From an uncultured bacterium (lineage in GTDB: Bacteria; SAR324; NAC60-12): DNA of 64,000 bases. Of the stretch, positions 8,338-23,820 are shown piece by piece (within the stretch, counting starts at the first letter, position 1; each line of letters opens with the position of its first letter). The position numbers and the translations under genes are program-made. The notes below the pieces were generated by a model, which was not told the origin of the DNA, did no database searches, and saw only the letters and a program-made list of their open reading frames with translations. The stretch is from the NCBI GenBank assembly GCA_965662845.1, contig CBFIJD010000004.1:20986-84985 (forward strand). Direction: 5' to 3'.

Positions 8338-8493
8338 TTTTTCACACACCCGAGCGCGCGCAAAGTCCTTGCAAGGAAACGCTAAACGGCTGATATTGCA
8401 GTTCACTTCTGCCACAAACGCTCTCTCGGAGAGCCCTCATTGCAGGTTGCGCACAATGTCTGAGCCAGCCTCACCTAACACCTGAGAACCGCC

Positions 8494-9531
8494 ATGCTCA
8501 CTCCATTTGCCAAGACCAAACAACAGGTTCACGACTCCCTTCACTCGCTCGCCGAGACCTCTCCAGCTCACCTACGCACGGCGCTAGAGCGGTGCTATCA
8601 CCCCAACGCGCAGTGGCGCGGCGCGCATCCCTTCAACGAGCTGAGCGGAATTGACGCCATCGAGCAGCAGTTCTGGCAACCGCTGTTGCGTGCGTTTCCT
8701 GATTTGGAGCGCTGCGACTCCATCTTTGTCGGCGGTGTTTATGAAGGACGACACTACGTTGCCGCTGTCGGACACTACGTGGGCACCTTCGAGCAAGCGT
8801 GGGCGGGCATCCCCGCGACCCGCAACGCGGTCTCGCTGCGCTATGGAGAAGTCCACGAGCTGCGACAAGGACAAATCGTGCAGAGCAACGTGCTCATCGA
8901 CGTGCTGGATGTGATGCGCCAAGCCGGGCATCGGCTGCAGGCTCCGAGCTTAGGGGTCGAAGGGTTCTGGCACGGGCCCGCGACCGGCGATGGCATCCGC
9001 CTGCACGATAGCGCGCCTGCTCAGTCTCAGCGCAGTTTGGCGCTCGTGCTGGCGATGCAGAAATCACTTGGAGATTACGATGACACGCAAGGAACGGGAC
9101 GCGAAGGCTTGCTCACCATGCCCCAGAAGGAATACTGGCACCCGAAGATGATGTGGTATGGGCCTTGTGGAATCGGCACCACGCGTCGTCTGGAGGGCTT
9201 CGTAGACTTCCATCAGCTGCCGTTTCGCACGGCCTTCCCCAACCGCAGAGGGGGGAATCACTACATCCGTATCGGCGATGGCGACTATGCCGTCACCGGC
9301 GGCTGGCCTAGCGTTTATGGCGAACATCACGGCGACGGCTGGCTCGGAATGGCGCCCACCGGCAAGACCATCCAAATGCGCGTGATGGACTTCTATCGCT
9401 GCGACGGCAACCTGATTCGGGAAAACTGGGTGCCGATCGACATCCTGCACATTCTACTGCAAATGAACGTTGACCTGCTCGGTCGCCTCCAAGCGCGGTC
9501 CGCACTCAAAGCAGAACATGCGACTCATTGA
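8494..9531 (+). CDS. SnoaL-like/ester cyclase (NTF2 fold) protein, two tandem domains
   Basis: GIPATRNAVSLRYGE, WYGPCGIG, PTGKTIQMRVMDFYRCDGNLIRENWV motifs. Confidence 0.85.
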   Translation: MLTPFAKTKQQVHDSLHSLAETSPAHLRTALERCYHPNAQWRGAHPFNELSGIDAIEQQFWQPLLRAFPDLERCDSIFVGGVYEGRHYVAAVGHYVGTFEQAWAGIPATRNAVSLRYGEVHELRQGQIVQSNVLIDVLDVMRQAGHRLQAPSLGVEGFWHGPATGDGIRLHDSAPAQSQRSLALVLAMQKSLGDYDDTQGTGREGLLTMPQKEYWHPKMMWYGPCGIGTTRRLEGFVDFHQLPFRTAFPNRRGGNHYIRIGDGDYAVTGGWPSVYGEHHGDGWLGMAPTGKTIQMRVMDFYRCDGNLIRENWVPIDILHILLQMNVDLLGRLQARSALKAEHATH

Positions 9532-10405
9532 CGCCCACCACCACCTCTGGCAACCCGAGGCCCTACCCTACGGTTGGCTCCGCCAACGCGGGCAGCCCAA
9601 GCCGTTCGGCGACCCAACCCCGATTCAGCGGGACTACCTGTGGGAGCATTTTCGTCAAGATGTAGGCGCCGCAGCGGTCGAGTTGATTGGCTCTGTGCAT
9701 GTGCAAGCCGACGGAGCGCTGCCGGATCCTGTCGCCGAGACGAAGTGGCTCCATACTCCAGACGACACCTTGCCCTCGGCGGTGGTAGGGTTTGTGGATT
9801 TGAGCAGCGACCAAGCCGAAGCGACGATCTTGCGTCACAAGCAATTCTCGCGATTTCGGGGCGTCCGGCAGATCATCGCACAGTTGGAATCTCGACCTGA
9901 CTTGTCGTTTGCCCCACAACCCTTTCTGCGCAACGCAACGTGGCGTGCTCAGCTGGCGCTGTTGCATGAGCATCACCTGAGTTTCGACTTACAGCTCTAC
10001 CCCGAGCAGATGCCCGCCGCCGCTGAGCTACTCTCCCAATTGCCAGAGATTCCGGTGGTGCTCGACCACGCGGGCTCACCATACGACCAAACGGAGGCGG
10101 GTCTTCAAACGTGGGCGACCGGCATCGCGCTGCTCGCACAGTTGCCCAATGTGCACGTTAAGTTGTCTGGCTTCGGCATGTTCGACCGCGCCTGGGACGC
10201 CGCCCGCGCTAAGCCCCTCTTTGAAACGCTATATACTCACTTTAGTCCGGCGCGCATGCTGTGGGGCAGCAACTTCCCTGTCGATCGCCTGATGCGCTCC
10301 TATGCCTTCTGCGTCGCGCAGTTGCAGCAGTGGCTCTCCGAGCTGCCAGCGACCGAGCAGCAACAGATCACCTGCGGCACCGCCCAACGCGTTTATCGAC
10401 TCTAA
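9518..10405 (+). CDS. Amidohydrolase family protein (sugar-lactonase-like)
   Basis: IDAHHHLW, VVLDHAGSP, NVHVKLSG, RMLWGSNFP motifs; ATG overlaps upstream gene end. Confidence 0.88.
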   Translation: MRLIDAHHHLWQPEALPYGWLRQRGQPKPFGDPTPIQRDYLWEHFRQDVGAAAVELIGSVHVQADGALPDPVAETKWLHTPDDTLPSAVVGFVDLSSDQAEATILRHKQFSRFRGVRQIIAQLESRPDLSFAPQPFLRNATWRAQLALLHEHHLSFDLQLYPEQMPAAAELLSQLPEIPVVLDHAGSPYDQTEAGLQTWATGIALLAQLPNVHVKLSGFGMFDRAWDAARAKPLFETLYTHFSPARMLWGSNFPVDRLMRSYAFCVAQLQQWLSELPATEQQQITCGTAQRVYRL

Positions 10406-10428
10406 CTCCGCTCCCTCCCCAAGGATCT

Positions 10429-11397
10429 ATGCAAGGCTTTGACTCTGAGTTTCACGACCTCCCCGACTACATTCTGAAGATCACCGAGCGCATCTGGGAA
10501 GGGCGCCAAGTGAACAAAATTCGCAGCTACTACACCGAGAGCTGCCGCGTGGAGACGCCCGCAAGCCTCACAAACTCTGTGGAAACCGTCGTCCAGTCCA
10601 CGCTTGAGACGCTGGTGATGTTCCCCGATCGCGAGCTGCTTGGCGAAGATGTGATCTGGTCGGAAGACGCCACCGGAGACTTCTACTCCTCGCACCGAAT
10701 TCTGTCGCCGATGACCCATCTGGGAGATGGGTTTTTCGGTCCGGCAACAGGACGGAAAGTCCACGTGCGCACCATCGCGGACTGCGCGGTTCGCAACAAC
10801 CAGATTTACGACGAGTGGCTGGTGCGAGACCAAGCCGCGATTGTGCGTCAGCTGGGTCTGAACCTCTCCGACTTCGCCAACGCGCTCGCTGCCGCTGAAG
10901 CTGCGACGGGGAGACCGCCACTGCACCTCGCGAGCATCACGCACCGACCGGCCTACGACGGTGTGCACGTCAACGATGACGTCCCAGCCCAAGACTACGC
11001 CGACTTGTATCGTGGGCTCTTTCGCCAAGCCAAGCTGGGAGACATCACGCAGAGCTATGACCGCGCTTGCTCCGTCGCCATTCCCGGAGGGGAGAGCTGC
11101 CACGGTTGGAAGGAAGTCACCGCATTCTGGAACGGGCTGCTCGCCAGCCTGCGCGACGTCAAGTTCACCATTGCTCATCTGATTTTGCGCGAAGACGACG
11201 GCCAACCTGCGCGCTTGGCGATGCGCTGGTGCGTCACCGCGACTCATGGCGGGAGCGGACGCTATGGCGCCGCGACGGGGAAGCCGCTGCATCTGTTGGG
11301 CATCAGCCACGCTGAGCTGCGCAGCGGCAAAATCCTACGTGAGTGGGTGCTGTTGGATGAACTCGCCATCTGGAAACAAATCCATTTCCCAATCTGA
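10429..11397 (+). CDS. SnoaL-like/NTF2 family protein, two tandem domains
   Basis: AAGGA RBS before ATG 10429; LPDYILKITERIWEGR, GEDVIWS, THLGDGFFGPATG, DEWLVRD, HGGSGRYGAATGK. Confidence 0.82.
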   Translation: MQGFDSEFHDLPDYILKITERIWEGRQVNKIRSYYTESCRVETPASLTNSVETVVQSTLETLVMFPDRELLGEDVIWSEDATGDFYSSHRILSPMTHLGDGFFGPATGRKVHVRTIADCAVRNNQIYDEWLVRDQAAIVRQLGLNLSDFANALAAAEAATGRPPLHLASITHRPAYDGVHVNDDVPAQDYADLYRGLFRQAKLGDITQSYDRACSVAIPGGESCHGWKEVTAFWNGLLASLRDVKFTIAHLILREDDGQPARLAMRWCVTATHGGSGRYGAATGKPLHLLGISHAELRSGKILREWVLLDELAIWKQIHFPI

Positions 11398-11509
11398 CGG
11401 CCTCCGCGCGTTTTCTGTTTGCAATCCGCTGCGACATTGTCAAACATATTTCCCTTTTCCAAACGTACAGCGCTACCTTGTCACCTAATTTTCAGCACCG
11501 CATCCTCGC

Positions 11510-12559
11510 ATGGCAGACATTTAACTCCGCAAGCTGAGCAAGCGCTGGGGCGCGTTTCAGGCCGTGCGCGACCTGAACTTATCCATCGCAGATCAGGAAT
11601 TCTTGGTGCTGCTGGGGCCCTCTGGTTGCGGGAAGACCACGACTATGCGGATGATCGCGGGTCTCGAAGACGCGACTGCGGGGGACATCTTGATTGGGGG
11701 ACAGCGCGTCAACGACCTAGAGCCGAAAGACCGCGACGTGGCGATGGTCTTCCAAAATTATGGGCTCTACCCCAACCTGAACGTCTACGAAAACATCCGC
11801 TTCCCGCTGAAAGTCCGCAAAGTCCCGGCGAACACCCACGACGAGCGAGTCCAACGCGCCGCTCAGATGGTGGAGCTGGGAGCCCTGCTGCATCGTCGTC
11901 CGGCGGAGCTCTCCGGCGGCCAGAAGCAACGCGTCGCGTTGGCGCGAGCCATTGTGCGTCAACCGAACGTCTTCTTGATGGACGAACCACTCTCGAACCT
12001 TGACGCGAAGCTGCGCCTCTCGACCCGAGCACAAATCAAAAACCTTCAGCATGAGCTGAAGGTCACCACGGTGTATGTCACCCACGACCAGACCGAAGCG
12101 ATGACGCTGGCCGACCGCGTCGTCGTGCTGAATCATGGCGAAGCGCAACAGGTCGGCAGCCCGCTCGACATTTACAACCACCCCGCGAACACGTTTGTCG
12201 CTGGGTTCATCGGCTCCCCCGCGATGAATCTGCTCCCCGGCGTCATCCGCGAGCACGTGTTTTTGGCGGAGAACGCCCAGGTTCCTCAGTTGAAAGCACC
12301 TGCGGGGAAAGTGACGCTCGGCTTCCGCGCCGAGGACGCGACGCTCCGCGAGACCGGCTCGCTGCGTGGACCGATCTACACGATTGAGATGCTCGGCGAC
12401 GCCACGATGGTCACGCTGCGCATCGCGGGGGCGCTGGTCACGGTCAAAATGCCGAAAGACTTCCGCGCCGAAATTGGAGACCCTGCGGCGATTGCCGTCG
12501 CGCCTGAAGACTGTCATTTGTTTGATTTTGAGAGCGGTCAGCGCCTGCCGACCCCATAA
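11510..12559 (+). pseudogene. Sugar (CUT1/MalK-like) ABC ATP-binding protein with in-frame TAA at codon 5
   Basis: ATG GCA GAC ATT TAA CTC CGC AAG reads MADI*LRKLSKRWGAFQAVRDLNL, in frame with the 11564-12559 ORF; Walker A GPSGCGKT, LSGGQKQR, FLMDEP intact. Confidence 0.75.
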
Positions 12560-12585
12560 CTGTCAACCCTGTCGATGAGGTTCAT

Positions 12586-13803
12586 ATGTTGAAGAAATTC
12601 CTATCCATCGCCGCCGTCTTCACGTCGCTTGTCGCGGCTCCGCTGAGCGCTACCGCAGACTGTGACTTCCGCCCGAGCAGCGAGCTTCGCATGCTCTCCA
12701 ACAGCTTTGAGGCGTGGAAAGCTGTCTCTGACGCCATGGCAGCGTGTGGCAACTTTAAGCCCGAGCTGGACACCGAGTTCCGTGAGAAGCAGCCCGAAGC
12801 CTTCGCCGCGAACCCGTCGCTGTATCACCTCGGCGGTGTCACGAACTCAACAATTCAGCCGCTGTTGGACGCCGGCACGATCCGCCCCCTCGACGAGTAT
12901 GTGCAGAAGTACGGGCAACAGCTCACTGCCAACCAGCTCATCAAAATTGACGGCAAGACCATGGCCGTCGCGATGATGGTCAACAACCAGCACCTGATGT
13001 ATCGCCAGGATATCTTCCAGGCGCTCAACATCCCCGTGCCGACAACCTACTTTGAACTCCTCGCGGCTGCAGACAAAATCAAGGCTTCTGGCAAAGTCGA
13101 ATACGCGCTGGGTGGAACCTACAAAGCGGGATGGAACCTCGCAGAAGAGTTCGTGAACATGTACCTCGGGCTAGGCGGAGAGTTCTTTGATGGTAACCAA
13201 GCTGCGATCAACAACGCGCAAGGCGTCCGCGCCTTAGAGATGATGCGCAACCTCACGCACTACATGGACCCTGAATATTTGGTCTCCGACTCAACCTATG
13301 TGCAGCAGCAATTTCAGCAGGGCAAAATCGCGATGGGCGTGTTGTGGGCGACCCGCGCCGCTGCGATGAACGACGCGAAAGAGAGTCAAGTCGTAGGCAA
13401 AGTCAAGATGGCCGCTGCGCCGCTCGCTCTCGCTGGCAACCTGCCCGCTTCGTCCCTCTGGTGGGACGGCATCGTGATCGCGAAGAACATCTCAGACCAA
13501 GAGGCCGAGGAAGCCTTTCAGTTGGCCATGGAAGGCCTCGACACCGAGATGGTCCAAGCGCACAACGACGCTGCGGTCTGGCTGATTCAAGGGTATCGCC
13601 CAGGTGAGCTGGCCGCCGGCGCTGCTGCGACTGCCGAAAACGGCGCGCGGCCCTATCCCACCGGCTCGGCGATGGGGCTGATGCACACCGCACTCGGCAA
13701 TAACATCGCTGATTTTCTCACAGGCAAAGAGACCGCCGAGCAGACGCTACGTGACATCGAAGCCGCTTACACCGCCGCTGCCCGTGAGAAGGGCTTGCTC
13801 TAA
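12586..13803 (+). CDS. Sugar-type (CUT1) ABC transporter substrate-binding protein
   Basis: Signal peptide; HLMYRQDIF, PTTYFELLAAA, FQQGKIAM motifs; flanked by ATPase and two permeases. Confidence 0.9.
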   Translation: MLKKFLSIAAVFTSLVAAPLSATADCDFRPSSELRMLSNSFEAWKAVSDAMAACGNFKPELDTEFREKQPEAFAANPSLYHLGGVTNSTIQPLLDAGTIRPLDEYVQKYGQQLTANQLIKIDGKTMAVAMMVNNQHLMYRQDIFQALNIPVPTTYFELLAAADKIKASGKVEYALGGTYKAGWNLAEEFVNMYLGLGGEFFDGNQAAINNAQGVRALEMMRNLTHYMDPEYLVSDSTYVQQQFQQGKIAMGVLWATRAAAMNDAKESQVVGKVKMAAAPLALAGNLPASSLWWDGIVIAKNISDQEAEEAFQLAMEGLDTEMVQAHNDAAVWLIQGYRPGELAAGAAATAENGARPYPTGSAMGLMHTALGNNIADFLTGKETAEQTLRDIEAAYTAAAREKGLL

Positions 13804-13821
13804 TCTTCGTCGTCAAGCCTC

Positions 13822-14847
13822 GTGAAACTACGCACTTTCCTCTTCTTCGTCGCGCCGTCTCTGCTGCTGATGAGCGCCTTCATCGCGGGGCCACTCTTCA
13901 GCGTGGCGTGGCAGAGCTTTCATGTCACGCAGCCCGTCTTTGAGACGGTCGAAGTTGAGGTCTGTACGCCTGGGTTTTTGCAGCCCATCTGCAAGACAGA
14001 AGCCCGCACGCAGCCGGTGTTGGACGACGCTGGGAAGATCATTACCGAGACCAAGTTTGTGGGCTGGGAGAGCTATCGGAACCTGCTCCACCCAGAGGTC
14101 GCGCTGACCGCGCTCCAGCAGGGGCAGTGGGACGCGCTGCTCAACCTAGACTTTTACAAAGCGCTGCGGTTCACCCTGACCTTCACTTTGGTGACGCTGC
14201 CCTTCGTGTTGGTGGTCGGGTTGCTGGTCGCGCTAGCGGTGAACCAGGCGACGCGGGCGCTCCGTGGACCGATCATCTTTGTGTCGCTGCTGCCTTTCAT
14301 CATCACGCCGGTGATCGGAGCGCTCTCGATCCGCTGGCTGTTCGTGGGGGACGGCATCCTCACGGCTTTCCTTGAGTGGTGGCTAGCGCGAGACATCGCC
14401 CTGTTCGCTCAAGGCTGGACGATCGAGCTGCTGATGCTCTTCTACCGCGTGTGGCACGTCGCGCCGTTCGCGTTTGTTGTGTTCTATGCGGGACTCCAGA
14501 CTGTTAACCAAGACACGCTGGAGAGCGCGATTGTGGACGGAGCCTCCCGTTGGCAGCGCATGCGCTATGTGATTTTGCCGCATCTCGCGCCGCTGGTTGT
14601 GTTCATCAGCGTCATTCACTTGATGGATTGCTACCGCGTGTTCGAGGAGGTGATTGGGTTCCGCAGCGAAGCGCATGTCATCTCGTTGCAGTGGCTCACC
14701 TTTGACTTGCTTCGCCCCGACGACAGCGGGAACCGACTCATCAGCAGCGCCTCGGCGTCCTCGATGCTGACGATGGTTGGGATTGTGCTGCTGTTGATTC
14801 CACTGCTACGGCGCACTTGGCGCGATCATCACCAGAGTCGAGGTTAA
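13822..14847 (+). CDS. Sugar ABC transporter permease
   Basis: EAA loop ESAIVDGASRWQRMRYVILP; multiple TM segments. Confidence 0.9.
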   Translation: MKLRTFLFFVAPSLLLMSAFIAGPLFSVAWQSFHVTQPVFETVEVEVCTPGFLQPICKTEARTQPVLDDAGKIITETKFVGWESYRNLLHPEVALTALQQGQWDALLNLDFYKALRFTLTFTLVTLPFVLVVGLLVALAVNQATRALRGPIIFVSLLPFIITPVIGALSIRWLFVGDGILTAFLEWWLARDIALFAQGWTIELLMLFYRVWHVAPFAFVVFYAGLQTVNQDTLESAIVDGASRWQRMRYVILPHLAPLVVFISVIHLMDCYRVFEEVIGFRSEAHVISLQWLTFDLLRPDDSGNRLISSASASSMLTMVGIVLLLIPLLRRTWRDHHQSRG

Positions 14848-15987
14848 ATGAGCGAAGCGCCCTTGCCTCGTGCCTTGCGTCCACCGGCGACCTTGCGTTG
14901 GTTCTCTGGAAGTTGCTTAGCCTTTTGGTGTGTGATCGCCGCGTTTCCGCTGTTTTGGATCACCATGATGAGCCTGAAGTTGCCGGTAGACGCCTTCTCA
15001 GAGAACCCGCTTGTCGTGCTTTTGGGACCGAGCACGCGTGAAGCTGGGCCCTCCGTCAGCGCAGCAGACCTCTTGCTCGGCGGCGCGTTTATTTGGGCGC
15101 TGCGCCGCTCGTTTCAGCGGCTTCCGCAGGTCGTAGTGTCTACAGGTTTGCATCCGCTCCTTTGTGGGGCGGCTTGGTTGTGCGGTGGACTGTTGCTAGC
15201 GACCTTGCTCCCAAGCATCGCGCGCGGGTTGGACTTCATCCCGCTGCTGAACACTCCTCTGCTCGGCATTACGCTGGAAAATTTTCGGGCGGTTTGGGTG
15301 GAGCAGGAGTTCACCCGTCAGTTTCTGAACTCTCTGCTCGTCACAGGCGGGGTTGTGAGCATCTCGCTGACGGTTGGGACCTTGGCGGGGTATGGGATCG
15401 CGCGGGCGGGGTCGTCGCTGGCGTTTTGGTTGCTGATGGTCGCGCTGGTGTTTCGCGCGCTGCCTCACTCTGTGCTGGTCTCGGGCTACTTACCGGTGTT
15501 TATCAACTCTGCAGAGCTGCTCCGTCCGCTCTTGGGAGACGCCGCGCCGGTGCTGTACGGCAAACCGTGGGCGATCATCATCGTGTTGGCGTCGATCAAT
15601 CAGCCGTTCACCATCTGGATGTTGCGCTCCTTTTTTCAGAACATCCCACGTGAGCTTGACGAAGCCGCTCGTGTGGATGGTTGCTCCCACATCGGCGCGT
15701 TTGTGCGAGTGATCATGCCGGTGATGTGGCCTGGTGTGATTACCGCAGGGCTGTTCAGTTTTTTGCTGGCCTACAACGACTACTTGGTCGCGGCGTTGCT
15801 GCTCGACATTCAGAATCAAACGATGGTCCCCGCCATTTCGGGGTTCTTTAACCGTGAAACCACCGCCACTGACCAAGTCGAAGCCGTGGCTGCGGCGGTC
15901 TCAATCACCGCGCCCTTGTTTTTGCTCGTGATGATGTTTCAGAAGCAACTTGTCTCCGGTCTCACGCAAGGAGCTGTCAAAGGATGA
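14848..15987 (+). CDS. Sugar ABC transporter permease
   Basis: EAA loop IPRELDEAARVDGC; ends FQKQLVSGLTQGAVKG. Confidence 0.92.
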   Translation: MSEAPLPRALRPPATLRWFSGSCLAFWCVIAAFPLFWITMMSLKLPVDAFSENPLVVLLGPSTREAGPSVSAADLLLGGAFIWALRRSFQRLPQVVVSTGLHPLLCGAAWLCGGLLLATLLPSIARGLDFIPLLNTPLLGITLENFRAVWVEQEFTRQFLNSLLVTGGVVSISLTVGTLAGYGIARAGSSLAFWLLMVALVFRALPHSVLVSGYLPVFINSAELLRPLLGDAAPVLYGKPWAIIIVLASINQPFTIWMLRSFFQNIPRELDEAARVDGCSHIGAFVRVIMPVMWPGVITAGLFSFLLAYNDYLVAALLLDIQNQTMVPAISGFFNRETTATDQVEAVAAAVSITAPLFLLVMMFQKQLVSGLTQGAVKG

Positions 15988-16913
15988 GTTTAGAAATTGT
16001 CCGCTTCGCTGAGCTGATCCCCTGTCGTTCGGCGTTCATCGACGCGCACACGCCGGGTTCTGACCGCAAGGAGAACTACACGATCATTGGCGCAGGGGTC
16101 TCTGAGTCTCCCGACCAGCACGTCCACATCGCCCAAACTCCGGGGTTTAATATCGGAGCGGCCGCGCAACCGGCTGGGTGCACCAACTCCTTGCACAGCC
16201 ACCGCACCGCCGAGGTGTTTCTCATCCACAGCGGCACGTGGCGTTTTTTCTGGGGGCTGTACGGTGACAAAGGCTCCGTCACCGTGAGACCCGGCGACAC
16301 CATCAGCTTGCCGACGCACATGTTTCGGGGTTTTGAGAACATCACCCCCCCAACCCCTGAAACGCCAGATGGTTACGGGTTCATGTTCGCGGTCTTGGGG
16401 GGCAACGACGCCGGCGGTGGCGTGGTCTGGGCTCCACAGGTGCTCGAGGCCGCACAGAACCATGGGCTGGTGTTGCTGGAGAATGGCCGCCTGCTCAACA
16501 CGAAGCTGGGAGAGACGGCCCCTACGGGCCTGCGCCCCCGCAAAGCGCTGGAGGGCGAAGCGCTCGCGGCGTTCGACCGCAACACCATCCGCGAGGAGGC
16601 CAAGGCGATCGCGCGCCGCGCCCACACCACTGAGTGGATTTTGGGAACCAACGCCGCAGCCAAGCTCCGCGAACGCACAGGCTTTAGCATTCAGCGCTTG
16701 ACCTCCGAACACACGCTCTCCCCCGAAGCAGGGCGCCCTTGCGTCGTGATCTGCAACGCGGGCTCGGCCAAGGTCGAGAGCGCCCTGTTAGGAGCCGGCG
16801 ATGTGCTGTATGCGGAAGCCGACGCAGCGAATGCGATCTCAGCGGCAGCCAACAGCGAAGTTTTTGTGATCACCCCGACCGATGATCCTGCTGGAGAAAC
16901 CACCTACTTGTGA
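15984..16913 (+). CDS. Cupin domain protein
   Basis: NSLHSHRTAEVFLIHSGTWRFFWG and GDTISLPTHMFRGFEN cupin motifs; ATGA overlap with upstream gene. Confidence 0.8.
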   Translation: MSLEIVRFAELIPCRSAFIDAHTPGSDRKENYTIIGAGVSESPDQHVHIAQTPGFNIGAAAQPAGCTNSLHSHRTAEVFLIHSGTWRFFWGLYGDKGSVTVRPGDTISLPTHMFRGFENITPPTPETPDGYGFMFAVLGGNDAGGGVVWAPQVLEAAQNHGLVLLENGRLLNTKLGETAPTGLRPRKALEGEALAAFDRNTIREEAKAIARRAHTTEWILGTNAAAKLRERTGFSIQRLTSEHTLSPEAGRPCVVICNAGSAKVESALLGAGDVLYAEADAANAISAAANSEVFVITPTDDPAGETTYL

Positions 16914-18040
16914 GAAGCCCCATGCCCCTAGCCGTCACGCACGTGGGATCGTTGCCCCGTCGCCAACGCACCGTCGATCAGATCTTTGCCCGAGAACGCA
17001 ACGCGCCGTGGGATCGCGCCACGTTTGATCACATCATGGCGGAGGAAGTCACCGAGACCGTGCGACGCCAAACCGAGGCGGGCGTGAGCATCGTCAGCGA
17101 CGGCGAGACCTCCAAGATCTCTTACGCGACCTACGTCAAGGATCGCTACACTGGATTTGATGGTGACAGCCCCCGCCAAGCGCCTGCAGACCTCAAACAG
17201 TTCCCCAGCTTCTTGCAGCGCCTCGCCGACAGCGGCGGCACCCCCACCTACTCCCGCCCTTGCTGCGTGGGCCCTGTGGCGCCCAAGGACGACCACGATC
17301 TACAAGCCGACATCGCGCATCTCCAAGCGGCGATGCAGCGCTCTGGGGTCGTGGAAGGCTTCCTCAACGCCGCGAGTCCGGGCGTGATCGCTCTGTTCCT
17401 GCCCAATCAGCACTACCCAGACCACGAAAGCTACCTGAACGCGCTGGGGGAAGCCCTCCAGCACGAATACCGCGCCATCATCGACGCCGGGTTGCAGCTG
17501 CAAATTGACTGTCCCGACTTGGCGTTGTCGCGCCACATGCTCTTCATGGACAAGTCAGACGCAGACTTCGTGCGCCTCGCAGATCTGCATGTCAGCGTAC
17601 TCAACAACGCGCTCGCAGGGCTGCCCAAAGAGCGCATCCGCCTGCACATCTGCTGGGGCAACTACGAAGGTCCCCACACGTGTGACATCGACATGGAGCG
17701 CGTCTTCTCTACGCTGATGCGTACCCACGCGCAGTACCTCCTGTTTGAGAACGCCAACCCGCGTCATGGCCACGAATGGACCGTCTTCGCCGAACGCAGA
17801 GCGGAGATCCCTGAAGACAAAGTCCTCGTTCCAGGGGTCGTGGACACAACCACCAACTTTGTGGAGCACCCTCGGTTGGTCACACAGCGGCTGCAGCGCT
17901 TCGTGGAGATTGTCGGACGCGAGCGGGTCGTCGCTGGCACCGACTGTGGCTTCGGGACCTTCGCTGGCTTCGGCGCGGTTGATCCTGAAATCGCGTATGC
18001 CAAATTACAAACCCTCGCACAAGGAGCCGCCGATGTCTGA
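16910..18040 (+). CDS. Single-barrel cobalamin-independent methionine synthase II family Zn enzyme (MetE C-terminal/epoxyalkane:CoM transferase-like)
   Basis: THVGSLPR, SDGE, Zn ligands HICWGNY, GTDCGF; alternative ATG at 16922. Confidence 0.88.
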   Translation: MRSPMPLAVTHVGSLPRRQRTVDQIFARERNAPWDRATFDHIMAEEVTETVRRQTEAGVSIVSDGETSKISYATYVKDRYTGFDGDSPRQAPADLKQFPSFLQRLADSGGTPTYSRPCCVGPVAPKDDHDLQADIAHLQAAMQRSGVVEGFLNAASPGVIALFLPNQHYPDHESYLNALGEALQHEYRAIIDAGLQLQIDCPDLALSRHMLFMDKSDADFVRLADLHVSVLNNALAGLPKERIRLHICWGNYEGPHTCDIDMERVFSTLMRTHAQYLLFENANPRHGHEWTVFAERRAEIPEDKVLVPGVVDTTTNFVEHPRLVTQRLQRFVEIVGRERVVAGTDCGFGTFAGFGAVDPEIAYAKLQTLAQGAADV

Positions 18041-18725
18041 GCTCATTTTCGCCGCGATGCGGAAGGTCGACACGCCGACCATCTCCAACGCGTTGGATGT
18101 CATTCTGGGAACGCGCGCTGCCGTCGGCTTCACTCGCTTCCCCACGGTCTGCGCTGATCCACAGCTGCCGCCCGTCGTCGGATATGCTCGCACCGCCAAG
18201 ATTCGCGCCGCTTCGGCGCCGTTGTGCTCCCCCGCCGAGGTTCGTGAGCTGCGCCTGCAATACTATGAATTTATGGAAGCCGGAAAACCGCCGGTCGTGA
18301 CGGTCATTGAAGACACCGACTGGCCGCACTGCGTGGGGGCGTTTTGGGGGGAAGTCAACACCGCGATTCATAAGGGGCTGGGCGTCGCTGGGGTTGTCAC
18401 CAACGGGCTGCTGCGCGACCTGGATGAGCTGGAGCCGGAGTTTCAAGTCATCGCTAGCAATGTCGGCCCGAGCCACGCTTTCGTCCACGTCACTGAGCTG
18501 GACAGTACGGTCAACATCCTCGGCATGACCGTGCGCCCCGGCGACATCATCCACGCCGACCGACACGGTGCGGTCGTGATCGCCCCCGAGCACCTCGCCG
18601 CGATGCCCGCTGCGATCCAAGCCATTCACGACAAAGAAGCCCCGATCCTCGCCGCAGCGCGCGCCGAAGGCTTCTCTGCCGCCAAGTTGCGCGAGCTTTG
18701 GCCCGGCGGCTCTCCCAAACCTTAA
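18033..18725 (+). CDS. RraA-like/HMG aldolase family protein
   Basis: DTPTISNAL, VVGYART, AFWGEVN, GVVTNGLLRD, VRPGDIIHADRHGAV motifs. Confidence 0.85.
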   Translation: MSELIFAAMRKVDTPTISNALDVILGTRAAVGFTRFPTVCADPQLPPVVGYARTAKIRAASAPLCSPAEVRELRLQYYEFMEAGKPPVVTVIEDTDWPHCVGAFWGEVNTAIHKGLGVAGVVTNGLLRDLDELEPEFQVIASNVGPSHAFVHVTELDSTVNILGMTVRPGDIIHADRHGAVVIAPEHLAAMPAAIQAIHDKEAPILAAARAEGFSAAKLRELWPGGSPKP

Positions 18726-18736
18726 CCTGAGCAGCA

Positions 18737-19228
18737 ATGTCCACCACAGAAGCGAACAAACAGCTCGTTGACGATATGTACGACGGCCTCAACCAGAACG
18801 TCTTGGGGCTGATGGAAAAATATTGGAAGGCAGACATGGTCTGGGAAGGACCTGCGGGCATCGGCACCAAGCGTGGCATCGACGCATTTGAGAACGACTA
18901 CCGCAGAGCCTTCATTCACGCCTTTCCTGACAAGCACGCCACCGACCTCGTGCGCATCGCCGAAGGAGACTGGGTCGCAGGCACCGGCTTTCAAGAAGCC
19001 ACCTTCGCCAATGCGTGGCTGGGGATCCCTCCGACCAATGAGAAAATTCGCGTCCGCTACATGGACTTCTGGCGCGTTGAGAGAGACGCGACCGGTGACC
19101 CCAAGCTCGCCGAGAATTTAGTCCTGATCGACATCTTGGGCGTGCTGGAGCAAGCCGGATATGACGTCCACAAAGTGCTGAAGTTTGTAGGCTCCAAGCC
19201 GCCCGCGTTTTTTGATGAGGTCACATGA
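18737..19228 (+). CDS. SnoaL-like ester cyclase, single domain
   Basis: MVWEGPAGIG, AFPD, IAEGDWVA, WLGIPPTNEKIRVRYMDFWR. Confidence 0.85.
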   Translation: MSTTEANKQLVDDMYDGLNQNVLGLMEKYWKADMVWEGPAGIGTKRGIDAFENDYRRAFIHAFPDKHATDLVRIAEGDWVAGTGFQEATFANAWLGIPPTNEKIRVRYMDFWRVERDATGDPKLAENLVLIDILGVLEQAGYDVHKVLKFVGSKPPAFFDEVT

Positions 19229-20265
19229 GCGCGGTCTCCGCACAAAACCAACAAAACAAACACGCCATTTGGGACTACTGGAACCAGCTGGAACAAGCCG
19301 CGCCTGCCGAGGTCGCTGCGCTGACGCGCGCCTATCAGCGAGGCGACGCTGTGTGGCAGGGCTTCGACCCGCTGAACCGCCTCCCCAACGCAGAAGCCTT
19401 CGCCGACACGTTCTGGAATCCGCTCAACGCCTCGCTTCCCGACCTCAAGCGTGAGACGCACATCTTCATGGGCGGAGCGTCCAGCGGAAACGTCGATGGC
19501 AGACCAGACGGACAACTTTGGGTCGGAGGGACGGGGTTATTCCACGGCACCTTCGAGCGGGACTGGCTCCTCGGCGGCGTCACGATTCCCGCCAACGGAC
19601 AGCGCGTCGCGATACGCTGGGGCGAGTTTCACCGCATGGAAGAGGGCCGCATCGCGGCGACGTACTGCCTGCTCGACCTTGTGGACTTTCTCAGTCAAAT
19701 CGGCGTTGAAGTCCTCCCACCAGCGCGAGGCGCCAACGGAGTCTGGCCAGCACCTGCCAGCCAAGACGGGGTCATGCTCGCAGCGCAAGACTCCGCGAGC
19801 ACAGACGCCAGCCGCGACTTGATTCGGCGCTTTCTGTTTGAAGGGCTCAACGCCTATGATCAGTCAGACCTCAGCAGCATGGGCGTCGCCGCGTTCTTTG
19901 CTCCCCACGTGCAGTGGTATGGTCCGGGAGGGATTGGGGCGTGTCGCAGTTTACGAGAGTTTGAAGACTTCCATCAGCGACCTTGGCTCACAGCCTACCC
20001 CGATCGGCAAGTGCAAGACCTCGACTCGCTCTTCGCGGAGGGGAATTACAGCGCTTCTTCGGGTTGGAAGGCGGTCGTCGCGACCCACTCCGGCCCCTAT
20101 TTGGACTGCCCTGCGACTCACCGGCAAGTCACATTCAACGGCATCGACTTCTGGCGCAGTGAGGGCAGCCATTATGTCGAGAACTGGGTCTTTGTGGACA
20201 TGCTCCACCTCTTCCGTCAATTTGGGGTAGATCTGTTGGCGCGCGTCATGCCCTCCCCGTCTTGA
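19225..20265 (+). CDS. SnoaL-like/ester cyclase protein, two tandem domains (paralogue of 8494-9531)
   Basis: IPANGQRVAIRWGE, QWYGPGGIG, HSGPYLDCPAT, DFWRSEGSHYVENWV. Confidence 0.85.
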   Translation: MSAVSAQNQQNKHAIWDYWNQLEQAAPAEVAALTRAYQRGDAVWQGFDPLNRLPNAEAFADTFWNPLNASLPDLKRETHIFMGGASSGNVDGRPDGQLWVGGTGLFHGTFERDWLLGGVTIPANGQRVAIRWGEFHRMEEGRIAATYCLLDLVDFLSQIGVEVLPPARGANGVWPAPASQDGVMLAAQDSASTDASRDLIRRFLFEGLNAYDQSDLSSMGVAAFFAPHVQWYGPGGIGACRSLREFEDFHQRPWLTAYPDRQVQDLDSLFAEGNYSASSGWKAVVATHSGPYLDCPATHRQVTFNGIDFWRSEGSHYVENWVFVDMLHLFRQFGVDLLARVMPSPS

Positions 20266-20307
20266 CGCCACGACTCCCGCAACTCTCTCGCTTCCCACAG
20301 GAGACAC

Positions 20308-21585
20308 ATGATTCGTTATCTGAAAGAAGGCATCAGCGCCGAGACGGCGAAAACCAACCACTCCCAAGTCCGCCAGACGGTGGAGCAGATCTTGGAAGAC
20401 ATTGAGAAGCGTGGCGACGCCGCTGTGCGCGAGCTCGCGCAAAAGTTCGACAAGTGGGAAAAGCCCACCTTCCGCTTGACCGCAGACGAGATCCAGGCCG
20501 CGGTGCAGGCAGTTCCCGAGTCCACCCAAGCAGACATTCGCTTCGCGCAGACGCAGATCCGCAACTTCGCGCAAGTGCAGCGCTCTGCGATCCAAGACGT
20601 GGAGCAAGAGACGCTGCCGGGCGTGATCCTCGGACACAAAAACGTCCCCGTGAACAGCGTGGGTTGCTATGTGCCCGGTGGGAAATATCCCATGGTCGCC
20701 TCAGCGCACATGAGCGTCGTGACCGCCAAAGTGGCTGGCGTCCCGCGGGTGATTGCCTGCGCTCCGCCGTTTCAGGGAGAGCCGCACCCGGCGATCATCA
20801 CCGCGATGCACTTCGGAGGTGCGGATGAAATTTACTGTCTTGGCGGCGTGCAAGCCGTAGGCGCGATGGCGCTTGGAACGGAGTCCATGCAGCCGGTGGA
20901 CATGCTCGTGGGGCCTGGGAACGCCTTTGTCGCAGAAGCCAAGCGTCAGCTCTACGGGCGCGTCGGGATCGACCTCTTCGCCGGCCCAACCGAGACCTTG
21001 ATCATCGCCGATGAGAGCTGCGACGCCGAGCTTTGCGCTGCGGATTTGTTAGGGCAAGCCGAACACGGCGTGAACTCGCCGGCGGTGTTGCTGGTCAACT
21101 CCGAGAAGCTGGCTCATGAGACGATGGCAGAAGTCGAACGTCAGCTGAAGGTGCTCCCCACCGGAGAGACAGCAGGAGCCGCGTGGCGCGATTATGGACA
21201 AGTGATCGTCTGCGACACCGCCGAAGAGATGGTCGCTCAAGCCGACGAGATTGCCTCCGAACACGTCCAAGTCATGACGCGCGACCCGCAATACTTCCTT
21301 GACCACATGACCAACTACGGCGCCTTGTTCCTCGGGCAAGAGACCAACGTGGCCTATGGCGACAAAGTCATCGGCACCAACCACACGCTCCCCACGAGCA
21401 AAGCCGCGCGCTACACGGGCGGTCTCTGGGTGGGCAAGTTCCTCAAAACTTGCACCTATCAGTGGGTCAAGACGCCAGAAGCCAGCACGCTCATCGGTGA
21501 ATACTGCTCTCGGCTTTGCGCGCTAGAGAACTTCGCCGGACACAAAGAACAGGCGGACATCCGCGTCCGTCGCTACAAAAAGTGA
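20308..21585 (+). CDS. Histidinol dehydrogenase-like paralogue (HisD/HpsN superfamily), substrate unknown
   Basis: [50 protein letters not shown]; catabolic context rather than a his operon. Confidence 0.88.
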
Positions 21586-21592
21586 GGTTGTT

Positions 21593-22345
21593 TTGCAGAC
21601 AGACCATTTGGCGGGGCGCGTTGCGCTCGTGACGGGGGGCGCAGGCGGGATTGGTTCGGCGATTTGTCAGGCGATCGCCGAGGCTGGCGGAAGAGTCATC
21701 GTCACCTATCACCGCAGTGCCGAGCGAGCAGAAGCGCTGCTGCAGGGGCTCGCGGGCGAGGGACACTCTGGCATGCAGGTGCGCGTGGACGACAGCCCAA
21801 TGCTGACGCAGGTAGCCAGCGAAGTCTGGGGCACCTACGGCAAACTCGATCTGCTGGTAAACTGTGCCGGTACCACGCGCTTCGTTCCACATGACGACCT
21901 CAACGCCTTAGACAACGACTTGATCGACGAGATCTTTCGCGTGAACTGGCGCGGCGCCTTCGCGACCATACGCGCGTTTCAGCCTCTGTTAGCGGAGAGT
22001 GACGACGCGCTGATCGTCAACATCTCGTCCATTGCCGCCGTCTCCGGCATGGGGAGCAACGTCGCTTATTGCGCGTCGAAGGCGGCGCTCGACTCCATGA
22101 CACGCTCCCTCGCAAGGGCGCTGGCTCCCAACATTCGCGTGGTTTCGTTGTCTCCCGGCGTTGTCGAGACGGAGTTTATTCAGGGGCTCGACCCGGCTTG
22201 GCTCGAGACGCAACGTGCGCGCACGCCGCTCCAGCGCTTTGTCTCACCCGACGAGATCGGCGCGGCGGTCGTGCAGCTCTACACCACGCTCCGGTCGCTC
22301 ACCGGCTGCATCCTCCCCATGGACAGCGGACGCCCGCTGGGGTGA
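21593..22345 (+). CDS. Short-chain dehydrogenase/reductase (SDR)
   Basis: TGGAGGIG, NCAG, NISS, YCASK catalytic motif; TTG start after GAGG. Confidence 0.92.
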   Translation: MQTDHLAGRVALVTGGAGGIGSAICQAIAEAGGRVIVTYHRSAERAEALLQGLAGEGHSGMQVRVDDSPMLTQVASEVWGTYGKLDLLVNCAGTTRFVPHDDLNALDNDLIDEIFRVNWRGAFATIRAFQPLLAESDDALIVNISSIAAVSGMGSNVAYCASKAALDSMTRSLARALAPNIRVVSLSPGVVETEFIQGLDPAWLETQRARTPLQRFVSPDEIGAAVVQLYTTLRSLTGCILPMDSGRPLG

Positions 22346-22413
22346 ACCTTCCTCAAGCCCGATAGGTGCGACAATGGCGCGGCAGCAGCCGCACCGTCTC
22401 GCCCACGCTCCAG
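22196..22413 (+). repeat. 218-bp direct repeat, left copy
   Basis: Identical to 24044-24261 except 22276 G vs 24124 A; covers the SDR 3' end and the region downstream of its stop. Confidence 0.95.
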
Positions 22414-22539
22414 CTTTTCCTGAGCAGACATCTGCGTATTGGTTTTTCAATCCTTCAACGAGCTTGCGCGTTGTTATCGTCGATGGCTTCTCTCGGTTCG
22501 ACTGTGCGGGTGTCCTGAAGGTCATTTTTAAACCAACTA

Positions 22540-22680
22540 TCAATTTTGCCCTGGCTTTGAAATCTGCGTCGCCCGAACCCCTATTTTCTTATGACCGAGG
22601 TAAGGTGCTACGATTTTTTCTATAAAAATCTGCTCTGTCTTACCCTCAACGATGGCGACAACCTCAATGTAATTCCTCAT
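22540..22680 (-). pseudogene. Truncated DUF4276-like (TOPRIM-like) gene, 46 aa
   Basis: MRNYIEVVAIVEGKTEQIFIEKIVAPYL...TQISKPGQN*; VEGxTE motif; overlaps the AAA ATPase stop by 17 nt. Confidence 0.7.
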
Positions 22681-23800
22681 AGACCGGGCCTCCATCAATC
22701 ACATTTTTAGTCCAGAGCTCACCAACAGAATAGTCTTCCAACCAAGTTGTGAAATCCTCTTCCTTCAGTCGCCGGAAGGTGGATGCGCCACTTTCACGAT
22801 TCACAACGATAACATCCTCAATGGCAAATTGATCAATAAGCGCAGGAGACTGGGTAGCCACAATAACCTGAGTTCGTTTGGCTGCAGCCTGAATCAGCTC
22901 CGCCAGCACCACAATCGCGGCTGGATGCAGTCCCAATTCCGGCTCATCAATCACGATCGTAGAAGGCGGACGCGGTTGCAGTAGCGCAGTGGCAAGGCAG
23001 ATAAAGCGAATGGAACCGTCTGAAAGGTGATAGGACTGCATCGGAAAATCCGATCCTTTCTGGTTCCAGCTCAGACGGACTTTTTCGGCCTCACCCAGTT
23101 TTTGTACATCCAGCCGGAAATCATCAAAGAAGGGTATGACCAGACGGACAGCATCAACAATACGTTGATAGTAATCAGGTTCAGAATCTTTAAGCTCCAA
23201 TAAAAAAGGAGCAATATTCGCAGCATCTCCTCTCAACTTGTGGAAATCTTCCACGATCTCTGAACGCCGCATGGGCGCATTGGCACTGGTGTCATGAAAG
23301 TGGTAAACCATCCAGTTGGAGATGGATTCATAGACAAAATGTCCAACGCCATGCCATTGGCCATCCATCGATTTTTCGTTGCGCTCATCATACAAACGGC
23401 TTTCATCTGATGCGCTCCCATAAGAGCGCCAATTTGTAGATACACATTTACGCTGCTCACTGATCAAAAATTTCTCATCCGCTGTTGGTGTCAGCTCAAA
23501 CTTATACGAATTGGTCCCTGTTGCATGATCACTGAGCGAAGCAAATTCAAATTCCATATTGATGCTCGGCGTCACTTTTGGACCATTAAAAAGGAAGTTG
23601 TCAGCACCGCCACGTTCGAGAATAAACTTGCTGAAATTTTTCTCTGTCATCGCCATCAGCATGCGGAAAATCTGTACAAAGTTACTCTTTCCCGCACCGT
23701 TCGCACCGATAATCACATTCAGATCGCCCAGCTTGAATTCGTTGAGGTCTTTGATAGATTTAAACCCCCTTATGGTCAATTTATCTAAAGACCCTTTCAT
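22664..23800 (-). CDS. AAA_21/ABC-type ATPase (AbiEii/PARIS/OLD-like)
   Basis: GGAGG RBS; Walker A GANGAGKSN, LSDGSIR, Walker B IVIDEPELGLHP, ATQSP. Confidence 0.9.
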   Translation of the reverse strand: MKGSLDKLTIRGFKSIKDLNEFKLGDLNVIIGANGAGKSNFVQIFRMLMAMTEKNFSKFILERGGADNFLFNGPKVTPSINMEFEFASLSDHATGTNSYKFELTPTADEKFLISEQRKCVSTNWRSYGSASDESRLYDERNEKSMDGQWHGVGHFVYESISNWMVYHFHDTSANAPMRRSEIVEDFHKLRGDAANIAPFLLELKDSEPDYYQRIVDAVRLVIPFFDDFRLDVQKLGEAEKVRLSWNQKGSDFPMQSYHLSDGSIRFICLATALLQPRPPSTIVIDEPELGLHPAAIVVLAELIQAAAKRTQVIVATQSPALIDQFAIEDVIVVNRESGASTFRRLKEEDFTTWLEDYSVGELWTKNVIDGGPVYEELH

Positions 23801-23820
23801 GGAATAACCTCCGAATTATT

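Follow-up and report, generated by a model that had tools for sequence, protein, structure and literature searches.

A conserved operon of mainly marine bacteria that combines a HisD-fold dehydrogenase, a MetE-like zinc enzyme and tandem SnoaL proteins, seen in a SAR324 genome

The closest described counterparts of the locus considered here are scattered over several catabolic pathways. In the degradation of 2,3-dihydroxypropane-1-sulfonate (DHPS), the dehydrogenase HpsN has the fold of histidinol dehydrogenase (HisD), uses catalytic Glu-His and Asp-Lys pairs and is accompanied by a downstream gene for a short-chain dehydrogenase/reductase (SDR). HpsN carries the signature G-R-Y-A/S-H, in which His126 binds the sulfonate, and true HisD carries G-S-A-P-L (PMC11382572). 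The Lig pathway of aromatic catabolism has a terminal RraA-family aldolase and an Amidohydro_2 lactonase, and the sulfo-Entner–Doudoroff and non-phosphorylative sugar-acid pathways bring together an SDR, a lactonase-type hydrolase, a pyruvate aldolase, an ATP-binding cassette (ABC) importer and a LacI regulator. Likenesses to all of these are found in a locus, or in its relatives, at positions 8494-22345 of a 64,000-nucleotide stretch from an uncultured SAR324 bacterium (lineage NAC60-12; assembly GCA_965662845.1, contig CBFIJD010000004.1, positions 20,986 to 84,985), hereafter the window. By open reading frame (ORF) calling and Pfam, the locus consists of 14 genes arranged head to tail on the + strand. 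A sequence-only reading of the same DNA had listed 13 co-oriented genes; the co-orientation holds, the count is 14, and every protein family that it had named was recovered in its place on the + strand. We propose that the operon serves the import and oxidative dismantling of a small, polar, methyl-bearing compound with a primary alcohol beside a carbinol, a reading that we put at just short of an even chance. Most probably, this compound is an enol or ketone that is cyclic and resembles a (carba)sugar. Every enzyme comes from a known superfamily and a catabolic operon is an ordinary kind of system; what has no description so far is their combination, along with the HpsN-like subfamily, the SnoaL proteins in tandem form and the putative MetE-like methyltransferase with a catabolic role.

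The operon is widespread. A scan of one representative genome per species found orthologues of the MetE-like gene in at least 598 species, and the best 80 loci were kept. Comparisons were made over 83 loci by local tblastn and all-against-all clustering of ORFs, and the counts given below come from the 52 loci with full 10-kb flanks unless another total is stated. The MetE-like gene stands beside HisD-like, cupin or two-domain SnoaL genes in 50 of these, and just 2 have neither the HisD-like gene, nor the cupin, nor the core two-domain SnoaL type, Sno2B. Individually, Sno2B is present in 47 loci, the cupin in 44, the HisD-like gene in 43, the SnoaL family Sno1 in 42, a LacI repressor in 41, an α/β-hydrolase in 31, an RraA-like or HpcH aldolase in 31 and the importer ATPase in 29. 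The arrangement far exceeds what chance would give, since synteny of these families extends to dozens of species and each of the 251 neighbours tested has the orientation of the MetE-like gene. Gene order is fixed across related loci, the canonical order being [solute-binding protein, permease, permease, ATPase] – SnoaL – HisD-like – (two-domain SnoaL) – SDR – LacI – two-domain SnoaL – cupin – MetE-like – α/β-hydrolase – RraA-like. The window copy is a rearranged variant that has two genes in addition, one for a further two-domain SnoaL protein and one, rare among the related loci, for an Amidohydro_2 hydrolase. A gene-neighbourhood comparison had been suggested together with the sequence-only reading, and the gene set is indeed kept together across genomes; the description of the locus as a catabolic uptake cluster is supported as well, with a LacI repressor added in most relatives.

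Among the best 80 loci, the main hosts are members of the Roseobacter group (Ruegeria, Planktomarina, HTCC2255, Octadecabacter), SAR116, marine Rhizobiales and Geminicoccaceae, joined by the gammaproteobacterial SUP05, Granulosicoccaceae and Thiotrichaceae. They are chiefly bacteria of the sunlit ocean or associated with algae or corals. Cultured strains have annotated copies, one of them on plasmid pMaD9 of Marinovum algicola DG898 (MALG_05009-05022). In the literature searched, subscription journals not covered, no description of the gene cluster and no characterised homologous cluster was found. Some neighbour families that had seemed conserved (clusters 14-19 and 21) were discarded as antisense ORF artefacts in GC-rich genes, and a fructose-bisphosphate aldolase adjoining the cluster in locus L088 is a housekeeping class II enzyme.

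The first unusual component is the HisD-like dehydrogenase. The gene at 20308-21585 (+) encodes a HisD-fold NAD/Zn dehydrogenase (Pfam Histidinol_dh, 1.5e-140), and an SDR oxidoreductase gene follows at 21593-22345 (+; adh_short_C2, 3.3e-46). The nearest solved relatives of the dehydrogenase are Cupriavidus HpsN (8v35, 4e-121, 408 bits) and an '(R)-DHPS dehydrogenase' (8wwe, 8e-118), with true HisD further away (4g07, 5.5e-83, 282 bits). The catalytic pairs are kept: ASEHVQV and GDKVIGTNH align to ASEHLEV and GDKTSGPNH of CpHpsN, matching its Glu318/His319 and Asp352/Lys353. Together with the downstream SDR, placed as in hps clusters, and with the JGI label of homologues, sulfopropanediol 3-dehydrogenase, these similarities could be taken to indicate a DHPS or other organosulfonate pathway, in which the HisD-like protein would be an HpsN making sulfolactate and the SDR would be HpsO/P. 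The sulfonate-binding signature argues against this. The motif of the window protein is G-K-Y-P-M, with Met in the position of HpsN His126; G-K-F/Y-P-M is found in 57 of 63 cluster-linked HisD-like homologues and K/R-Y-P-M/L in 120 of the 120 best database homologues, so that G-K-Y-P-M/L replaces the G-R-Y-A/S-H described for HpsN (PMC11382572) in the window protein, in its best homologues and in the cluster orthologues. Neither SuyAB, Xsc, CuyA or SlcD nor a TauE-type sulfite exporter is among the conserved neighbour families of the operon, uptake is by a CUT1-type ABC system instead of the HpsKLM tripartite ATP-independent periplasmic (TRAP) transporter, and the neighbours are entirely different from those of hpsN. 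A DHPS pathway was dropped on account of the motif and of the sulfolyases absent from the neighbourhood, and we consider it highly improbable.

The protein passes the HisD model TIGR00069 (454.7 bits against a cut-off of 243.8), but this is non-discriminating, because HpsN belongs to the same Pfam family and scores above true HisD against the window protein; we infer that characterised HpsN would pass too. On its motif and alignments, the enzyme represents a third, uncharacterised subfamily that is neither HisD nor HpsN. The HisD paralogue of the sequence-only reading therefore keeps its fold and becomes, more precisely, a sister of the HpsN clade within a distinct G-K-Y-P-M/L subfamily. By analogy with HpsN, it probably performs a four-electron oxidation of a CH2OH group beside a carbinol, on a substrate other than a sulfonate. 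Some relatives encode another HisD-fold paralogue (L023, 5371-6771 (-); also L025, L035, L047, L052 and L074), which shares about 46% identity with the protein of the window and co-occurs with an amidase-signature enzyme; its motif is probably G-R-F/Y-P-L. Apart from true HisD, the HpsN-like proteins would thus seem to fall into three or more subfamilies.

The second unusual component is the MetE-like Zn enzyme encoded at 16910-18040 (+; Meth_synt_2, 1.7e-12). It has 376 aa and a single barrel, is about 21% identical to the C-domain of Escherichia coli MetE and has no N-terminal folate barrel. In BLASTP and hhalign alignments, H246, C248, E280 and C346 match the Zn ligands H641, C643, E665 and C726 of E. 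coli MetE, and S14, E66 and D200 match S433, E484 and D599, which we take to hold the amino-acid end of homocysteine. All of these residues are invariant in 24 orthologues. The Zn site and the homocysteine-binding residues are thus shared with MetE and with single-barrel 'core' MetE proteins; unlike two-barrel MetE, the window protein has one barrel and no folate/polyglutamate-binding N-domain, and its gene belongs to a catabolic operon. The model TIGR01371 scores 21 against a cut-off of 930, and all single-domain methionine-synthase models of NCBIfam stay under cut-off as well. The family is large, with more than 8000 database homologues, many of them about 70% identical across orders; a 372-aa form starting at ATG is in the database, an exact look-up of the GTG-start form gave none, and a PDB search matched significantly only proteins without assigned function. 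From the conserved residues we infer a homocysteine S-methyltransferase with a non-standard, non-folate methyl donor. Because the Zn ligands and homocysteine-binding residues are kept, the methyl group of the substrate probably ends up in methionine.

These residues also bear on the earlier proposal that a thiol on the MetE-like Zn opens an epoxide or cyclic ether, as XecA does with coenzyme M (CoM), the NTF2-fold proteins acting as epoxide hydrolases or isomerases. The enzyme does belong to the Zn family PF01717, a 73%-identical homologue is named 'epoxyalkane--coenzyme M transferase' in one NCBI record, and the NTF2 fold includes epoxide hydrolases. However, the invariant residues would bind the amino-acid end of homocysteine, a group that CoM does not have. 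No enzyme of the CoM pathway, no epoxide-making monooxygenase and no xec-like gene is among the families conserved across the 83 loci, and the SnoaL model described below is nearest to polyketide cyclases and hydroxylases and not to epoxide hydrolases. The proposal is accordingly unsupported, and we regard it as very unlikely.

Paralogues of the MetE-like enzyme, 46-48% identical, are encoded in other settings where methyl groups are handled. Novosphingobium and Croceicoccus have them in ligM/metF/folD/ligAB/ligK clusters, accompanied in every case by an NTF2 gene. In Novosphingobium pentaromativorans (L094, 9001-10526) and on plasmids of Croceicoccus marinus (L096, 9007-10523), the paralogue and a small NTF2 gene form a translationally coupled pair within ligM-metF-purU-folD or ligAB-ligK lignin-aromatic clusters, and the role of this pair appears to be undescribed. 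The NTF2 protein of the Novosphingobium pair has no detectable similarity to the SnoaL protein of the window. A Dietzia paralogue adjoins 2-oxoglutarate/PhyH/HD oxygenases.

Upstream of, and overlapping, the MetE-like gene lies that of the cupin (15984-16913, +). Its Pfam match, Cupin_2 at 1.9e-5, is below the gathering threshold (24.7 against 27.2), but the identity is confirmed because an HxHxxxE...H motif is invariant in 20 homologues and because an AlphaFold2 model (mean predicted local distance difference test, pLDDT, 75.8) shows a bicupin. The motif supplies H71, H73, E77 and H112 as a 3His-1Glu site, the one metal site of the model. The best Foldseek matches are quercetin 2,3-dioxygenases and pirin, at a TM-score of about 0.5 and 10-14% identity; a PDB sequence search gave no match. 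Quercetinases and pirin, the nearest folds, cleave α-hydroxy-enones. The bicupin layout and the single 3His-1Glu site are thus common to the window protein and the quercetinase, pirin and acireductone types, and low identity and modest fold overlap set it apart from them. On the model, we propose a putative ring-cleaving dioxygenase. Cupins with the same metal site can also be isomerases or decarboxylases.

A pyruvate aldolase would complete the breakdown. The RraA-like protein (18033-18725, +; PF03737, 1.9e-20) has significant PDB sequence matches only to proteins without assigned function. Aligned with the solved 4-hydroxy-4-methyl-2-oxoglutarate/4-carboxy-4-hydroxy-2-oxoadipate (HMG/CHA) aldolase 3noj, its LRD falls on VRD (R123/D124), the catalytic Arg-Asp pair, and its WGE on FGD, which supplies the acidic metal-shell residue D102, and we propose on these grounds that it is a class II pyruvate aldolase of the HMG/CHA type. 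Vibrio has an HpcH/HpaI aldolase of the GarL/HpaI-like kind where RraA would be expected, as do 4 of the 52 loci, all alphaproteobacterial (L023, L035, L047 and L052), and because RraA is exchanged for HpcH in these variants, a terminal pyruvate aldolase is supported. The kept Arg-Asp pair and this replacement also uphold the role of keto-acid aldolase suggested earlier for the protein.

The fourth distinctive component is the set of SnoaL/NTF2 proteins, with seven mutually alignable domains in four proteins, all of which have Pfam SnoaL or SnoaL_2 matches. Three are two-domain proteins, of 345 aa (8494-9531, +; SnoaL, 9.5e-22 over two stretches), 322 aa (10429-11397, +; 3.7e-20) and 346 aa (19225-20265, +; 2.4e-17), and one is a single-domain protein of 163 aa (18737-19228, +; 4e-15). 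The paralogy of the 8494 and 19225 proteins, recognized in the sequence-only reading together with the W(Y/E)GPxGIG motif that they share with the 18737 protein, was confirmed: the two are 34% identical over their full length (6e-65). The 8494 protein belongs to an ORF family, Sno2AC, found in 43 of the 83 loci. The 322-aa protein is of the Sno2B type, with orthologues that are 38-46% identical; because conservation begins at MQGFD, its start is placed at about 10429 and not at the GTG at 10261. An AlphaFold2 model of the single-domain protein (pLDDT 81.9) has SnoaL2, AclR, ChaU, IdmH and SnoaL as its best Foldseek matches. These nearest folds, as judged from the model, are enzymes of enol and polyketone chemistry. 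In fold and Pfam family the window proteins resemble these cyclases and cofactor-free hydroxylases; they differ in being encoded in a catabolic operon with no polyketide synthase (PKS) context, and three of the four are tandem two-domain proteins. Polyketide biosynthesis was ruled out, there being no PKS or tailoring genes and, instead, an importer and a repressor. The copy number of SnoaL genes differs between genomes, and an amidase joins the variants that have fewer of them. Such an exchange is a hint of a hydrolytic role, on C-N bonds, for the SnoaL proteins, and the pattern fits C-N cleavage across a family of related substrates.

Two hydrolases accompany these enzymes in different parts of the family. 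In the window, the gene at 9518-10405 (+) encodes an Amidohydro_2 (cog3618-type) hydrolase (PF04909, 2.1e-34), a rare accessory with homologues in only 3-4 related loci. Its best NCBIfam model is L-fucono-1,5-lactonase NF052480 (104.5 bits, cut-off 400), and its PDB matches are led by the L-fucono-1,5-lactonase 4dlf (2e-16) and include 2ffi, a putative 2-pyrone-4,6-dicarboxylate hydrolase. A lactonase is the probable function from these similarities, and the earlier suggestion to that effect is plausible with 4dlf as the best solved relative. The α/β-hydrolase of the canonical operon is nearest to the enol-lactonase PcaD, with the methyl esterase BioH matched too. The SDR reaches the cut-off of no NCBIfam model; most related loci have an SDR gene after the HisD-like one.

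The hydrolases and the aldolase bring the locus close to the 4,5-cleavage of protocatechuate or 3-O-methylgallate. In a variant of that route for methoxylated aromatics, the cupin would cleave the ring and the Amidohydro_2 protein, the α/β-hydrolase and the RraA-like protein would act in the manner of LigI, LigJ and LigK. The RraA-like, Amidohydro_2 and PcaD-like families are common to both systems, the MetE-like/NTF2 pairs of Novosphingobium and Croceicoccus sit in lig clusters with ligK, ligAB and amidohydrolases, and cleavage of 3-O-methylgallate yields a methyl ester, 4-carboxy-2-hydroxy-6-methoxy-6-oxohexa-2,4-dienoate (CHMOD). The likeness ends at the remaining steps. A bicupin stands in place of LigAB, and LigC, LigU, LigJ and a tetrahydrofolate (THF)-dependent, GcvT-type O-demethylase are absent; an HpsN-type diol dehydrogenase and an SDR would be without a role in the 4,5-cleavage route; and LacI regulation with CUT1 sugar-type uptake, or with TRAP and solute:sodium symporter family (SSF) uptake, is unusual there. 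The equivalog scores for this pathway are all far under cut-off, that of the RraA-like protein for LigK/PcmE (TIGR02798) being 28.1 bits against 304.5. Because uptake and regulation are of the sugar type and Lig enzymes are missing, aromatic 4,5-cleavage is unlikely, to a degree that leaves it a very slim chance.

In the scheme that we propose for the operon, and to which we give about an even chance, the NTF2/SnoaL proteins would first remove or isomerise substituents of an enol or enaminone ring, and the HisD-like enzyme would oxidise the CH2OH group to a carboxylate with 2 NAD+. The cupin would then cleave the ring with O2, the MetE-like enzyme would pass the methyl group to homocysteine to form methionine, and the RraA-like aldolase would split a 4-hydroxy-2-oxo acid into pyruvate and a second keto acid. 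The methyl group may at first be released as a methyl ester, from cleavage beside the methoxy carbon. In relatives, as where the MetE-like gene is absent, hydrolysis of such an ester by the PcaD/BioH-like α/β-hydrolase could be an alternative to the MetE-like step, and in the window the Amidohydro_2 protein would open a lactone. Uptake, catabolism and aldol cleavage carry over from the sequence-only reading into this scheme and its epoxide opening does not; its idea of a sugar-like substrate that undergoes ring opening is compatible with the evidence.

One intriguing candidate for the substrate is 4-deoxygadusol, or gadusol, released from mycosporine-like amino acids (MAAs). The assignment is by chemical logic, and we regard it as speculative and, taken by itself, unlikely; 4-deoxygadusol and MAAs suit the enzyme set better than the alternatives, and either 4-deoxygadusol or gadusol makes all of the proposed steps necessary. 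The 4-deoxygadusol ring carries a C5(OH)(CH2OH) group and a 2-methoxy group on a β-diketone enol, and its enolate oxygen would be as far from the carbinol as is the sulfonate oxygen in DHPS. NTF2 hydrolases would strip the amino acids from MAAs to give 4-deoxygadusol. Oxidation of the hydroxymethyl group and C2-C3 cleavage, in the manner of a β-diketone dioxygenase or quercetinase, would then yield the 1-methyl ester of 4-carboxy-4-hydroxy-2-oxoadipate, and this ester would be the folate-independent methyl donor of the MetE-like enzyme. Removal of the methyl group would leave 4-carboxy-4-hydroxy-2-oxoadipate, and cleavage of the RraA type would give pyruvate and oxaloacetate. For aldolases of the RraA family, 4-carboxy-4-hydroxy-2-oxoadipate is the textbook substrate. 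According to a review, mycosporine-glycine and 4-deoxygadusol are formed from shinorine and porphyra-334 by marine bacteria, the first step being credited to Vibrio harveyi, through enzymes that were not named (PMC3083659). In the literature on mycosporine and gadusol catabolism, no paper on this operon was found, and a 2026 cyclitol review has no MAA catabolic genes. Some other candidates were set aside. A homarine operon (flavin enzymes, a peptidase and an aldehyde dehydrogenase; PMC13236597) is unrelated to this cluster. Salvage of methionine or methylthioribose, with the cupin as an acireductone dioxygenase, was dropped as MtnK/A/B-type genes are absent and the HisD-like enzyme would be left unexplained. 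Pantoate or pantothenate, suggested by TRAP and SSF similarity, would leave the cupin, the NTF2 proteins and the MetE-like enzyme unexplained.

Several observations weigh against the methyl-bearing cyclic substrate, and some of them favour a smaller one. In the splendidus clade of Vibrio, a HisD-like gene (76% identical) is found with an SDR, a cupin, an α/β-hydrolase, two two-domain SnoaL genes and LacI; an HpcH/HpaI aldolase replaces RraA, TRAP and SSF transporters replace the ABC importer, and there is no MetE-like gene. The closest solved relatives of the Vibrio TRAP binding protein are 7bbr, 4p9k and 4pdh (about 1e-51), presumably binders of erythronate, pantoate and xylonate, and a small aldonic acid would agree with such relatives no less well. 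In Marinobacterium and one betaproteobacterium, HisD-like relatives, 76-77% identical, occur without cupin or SnoaL genes, their neighbours in Marinobacterium being an SDR and TRAP transporters only, and the substrate of these relatives may be a simple small diol acid. The sphingomonad clade of MetE-like proteins, encoded beside folate genes, may simply use methyl-THF, in which case the MetE-like enzyme need not be the demethylase. HisD and HpsN enzymes act on secondary carbinols and are not known to act on tertiary ones, and the SDR fits no assigned step of the scheme. SUP05, SAR324 and Acidiferrobacterales are among the hosts and are typical of dark water or sediment. In the window itself the ATPase gene is interrupted and the regulator absent.

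A pathway for a small sugar acid or reductone without a substrate methyl group would account for part of this. Threonate or erythronate would be converted through tartrate and oxaloacetate to pyruvate, or an ascorbate-like reductone would be degraded; the HisD-like enzyme would make the dicarboxylate, the cupin and SnoaL proteins would be isomerases or dehydratases, RraA or HpcH would be an oxaloacetate decarboxylase or 2-keto-3-deoxy-acid aldolase, and the MetE-like protein a co-located methionine synthase using methyl-THF. Besides the Vibrio, Marinobacterium and sphingomonad variants just described, the geometry of the HpsN site speaks for such a substrate, as a carboxylate oxygen of a C4 aldonate sits where the DHPS sulfonate oxygen does (PMC11382572). 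Yet in more than 50 species translational coupling ties the MetE-like gene to its neighbours, the cupin gene on one side and hydrolase or aldolase genes on the other, which would be odd for a housekeeping enzyme, and a C4 acid would need far fewer enzymes than a bicupin, a lactonase and three or four proteins of the NTF2 fold. The known dehydratase families are absent among the conserved neighbours, and the known sugar-acid pathways, which the locus resembles in its SDR, lactonase-type hydrolase, aldolase and importer, have no counterpart of its HisD-like, cupin, MetE-like and NTF2 proteins, just as the locus has no glycosidase. We judge a small sugar acid or reductone to be improbable.

The importer and the condition of the window copy deserve separate comment. 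All four parts of a CUT1 system are there: a MalK/UgpC-type ATPase with a TOBE domain (11510-12559, +; ABC_tran 1.2e-34, OB_MalK, TOBE_2), a periplasmic solute-binding protein (12586-13803, +; SBP_bac_1 4.9e-20, SBP_bac_8) and two permeases (13822-14847, +, BPD_transp_1; 14848-15987, +, BPD_transp_1 3.7e-19). The binding protein has distant solved relatives only (5iai, 1.3e-16; SmoF, 1.8e-8), and orthologues of the first permease hold the same position in related loci. The ATPase gene begins ATG GCA GAC ATT TAA, with an in-frame stop as codon 5 (11522-11524); the translation MADI*LRKLSKRWG compares with MAEIQLRN.SKRWG in orthologues, where the site of the stop is Q, K or E. The longest intact ORF (11564-12559, GTG start) is without the first strand and the aromatic residue of KRWG. 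The TAA may be a true nonsense allele or may stem from an error in the assembly.

The window copy may accordingly be decaying or reliant on other loci. In addition to the nonsense codon, the usual LacI and α/β-hydrolase genes are missing, with homologues of LacI, the α/β-hydrolase, HpcH and the amidase all absent from the 64-kb window, and the genes are arranged otherwise than in the canonical operon. Against decay stand the remaining 13 genes, which are intact and translationally coupled; five junctions overlap by 4-14 bases (start/stop 9518/9531, 15984/15987, 16910/16913, 18033/18040 and 19225/19228). Three further metagenome contigs have identical downstream genes, none of them spanning the stop codon, the TAA could be a single-base assembly error, and about half of the related loci have no ATPase gene (29 of the 52 have one). 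In CUT1 systems, the ATPase can be shared between systems. Decay or dependence on other loci is a minority prospect in our judgement, and unlikely. A scan of 8000-23000 for promoters and terminators was uninformative, with fewer sites than in shuffled sequence.

Related loci show further variation in content. In L023, L035, L047, L052, L074 and L025, the amidase and the second HisD paralogue are added and SnoaL genes are fewer. In Ruegeria loci, 7 of the 52, a SAM-dependent methyltransferase gene is inserted between the cupin and MetE-like genes (L011, 9389-9988). A SUP05 locus (L062) has inserts encoding a haloacid dehalogenase-family (HAD) hydrolase, a glucose-methanol-choline (GMC) oxidoreductase and an MttB-family methyltransferase (5804-6493, 12691-14298 and 15427-16944). 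On pMaD9 of Marinovum algicola (L084, 17279-23921), the operon abuts dimethylsulfoniopropionate (DMSP) genes, namely dmdA, an acyl-CoA ligase gene and a gene of the SBP56 family (selenium-binding protein), and another SBP56 gene lies near the operon in L002 (17973-19337). This proximity may be coincidence on catabolic replicons.

The surroundings of the operon in the window are of other kinds. Directly after it, an AAA_21/AAA_15 ATPase gene (22664-23800, -) matches the PADLOC candidate defence protein HEC-01A (6.6e-141); it lies in a stretch of lower GC content (0.51 against about 0.61), and contig L090 has the same neighbour. The small ORF upstream of this gene (23797-24072, -) has no PADLOC match. 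Just upstream of the operon, two ORFs of 487 aa (5139-6602, -) and 520 aa (6775-8337, +) have no Pfam or PADLOC match, the 520-aa product being rich in Q, R, L and E. Further downstream are ORFs at 24201-25349 (-) and 25300-26988 (-), in which the start region of a second ABC ATPase ORF overlaps a recN-like gene by 50 bases. The start of the window (23-5100) encodes a haem-binding domain protein, a cytochrome c, a PCuAC protein and another ABC system.

The carriers of the operon include abundant ocean lineages, among them the Roseobacter groups Planktomarina and HTCC2255, SAR116, SUP05, SAR324-like metagenome-assembled genomes and Vibrio. Because the operon is found in at least about 600 species representatives, such lineages included, its substrate is likely to be a significant and so far unaccounted-for part of labile marine dissolved organic matter. 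Should the substrate derive from MAAs, the operon would be the missing bacterial route for MAAs and gadusol, the main ultraviolet sunscreens of marine phototrophs. Knowledge of the pathway would assign a function to several large groups of misannotated proteins. Among them are 'histidinol dehydrogenases', in their thousands, outside both HisD and HpsN; similarly numerous 'methionine synthase II' proteins, for which intermediates of catabolism are the probable source of methyl groups; tandem SnoaL 'ester cyclases' outside a polyketide context; and RraA-like proteins with no link to the breakdown of aromatics. Should an intermediate of the pathway donate the methyl group, the MetE-like enzyme would represent a new route from environmental methyl groups to methionine that needs neither folate nor cobalamin.

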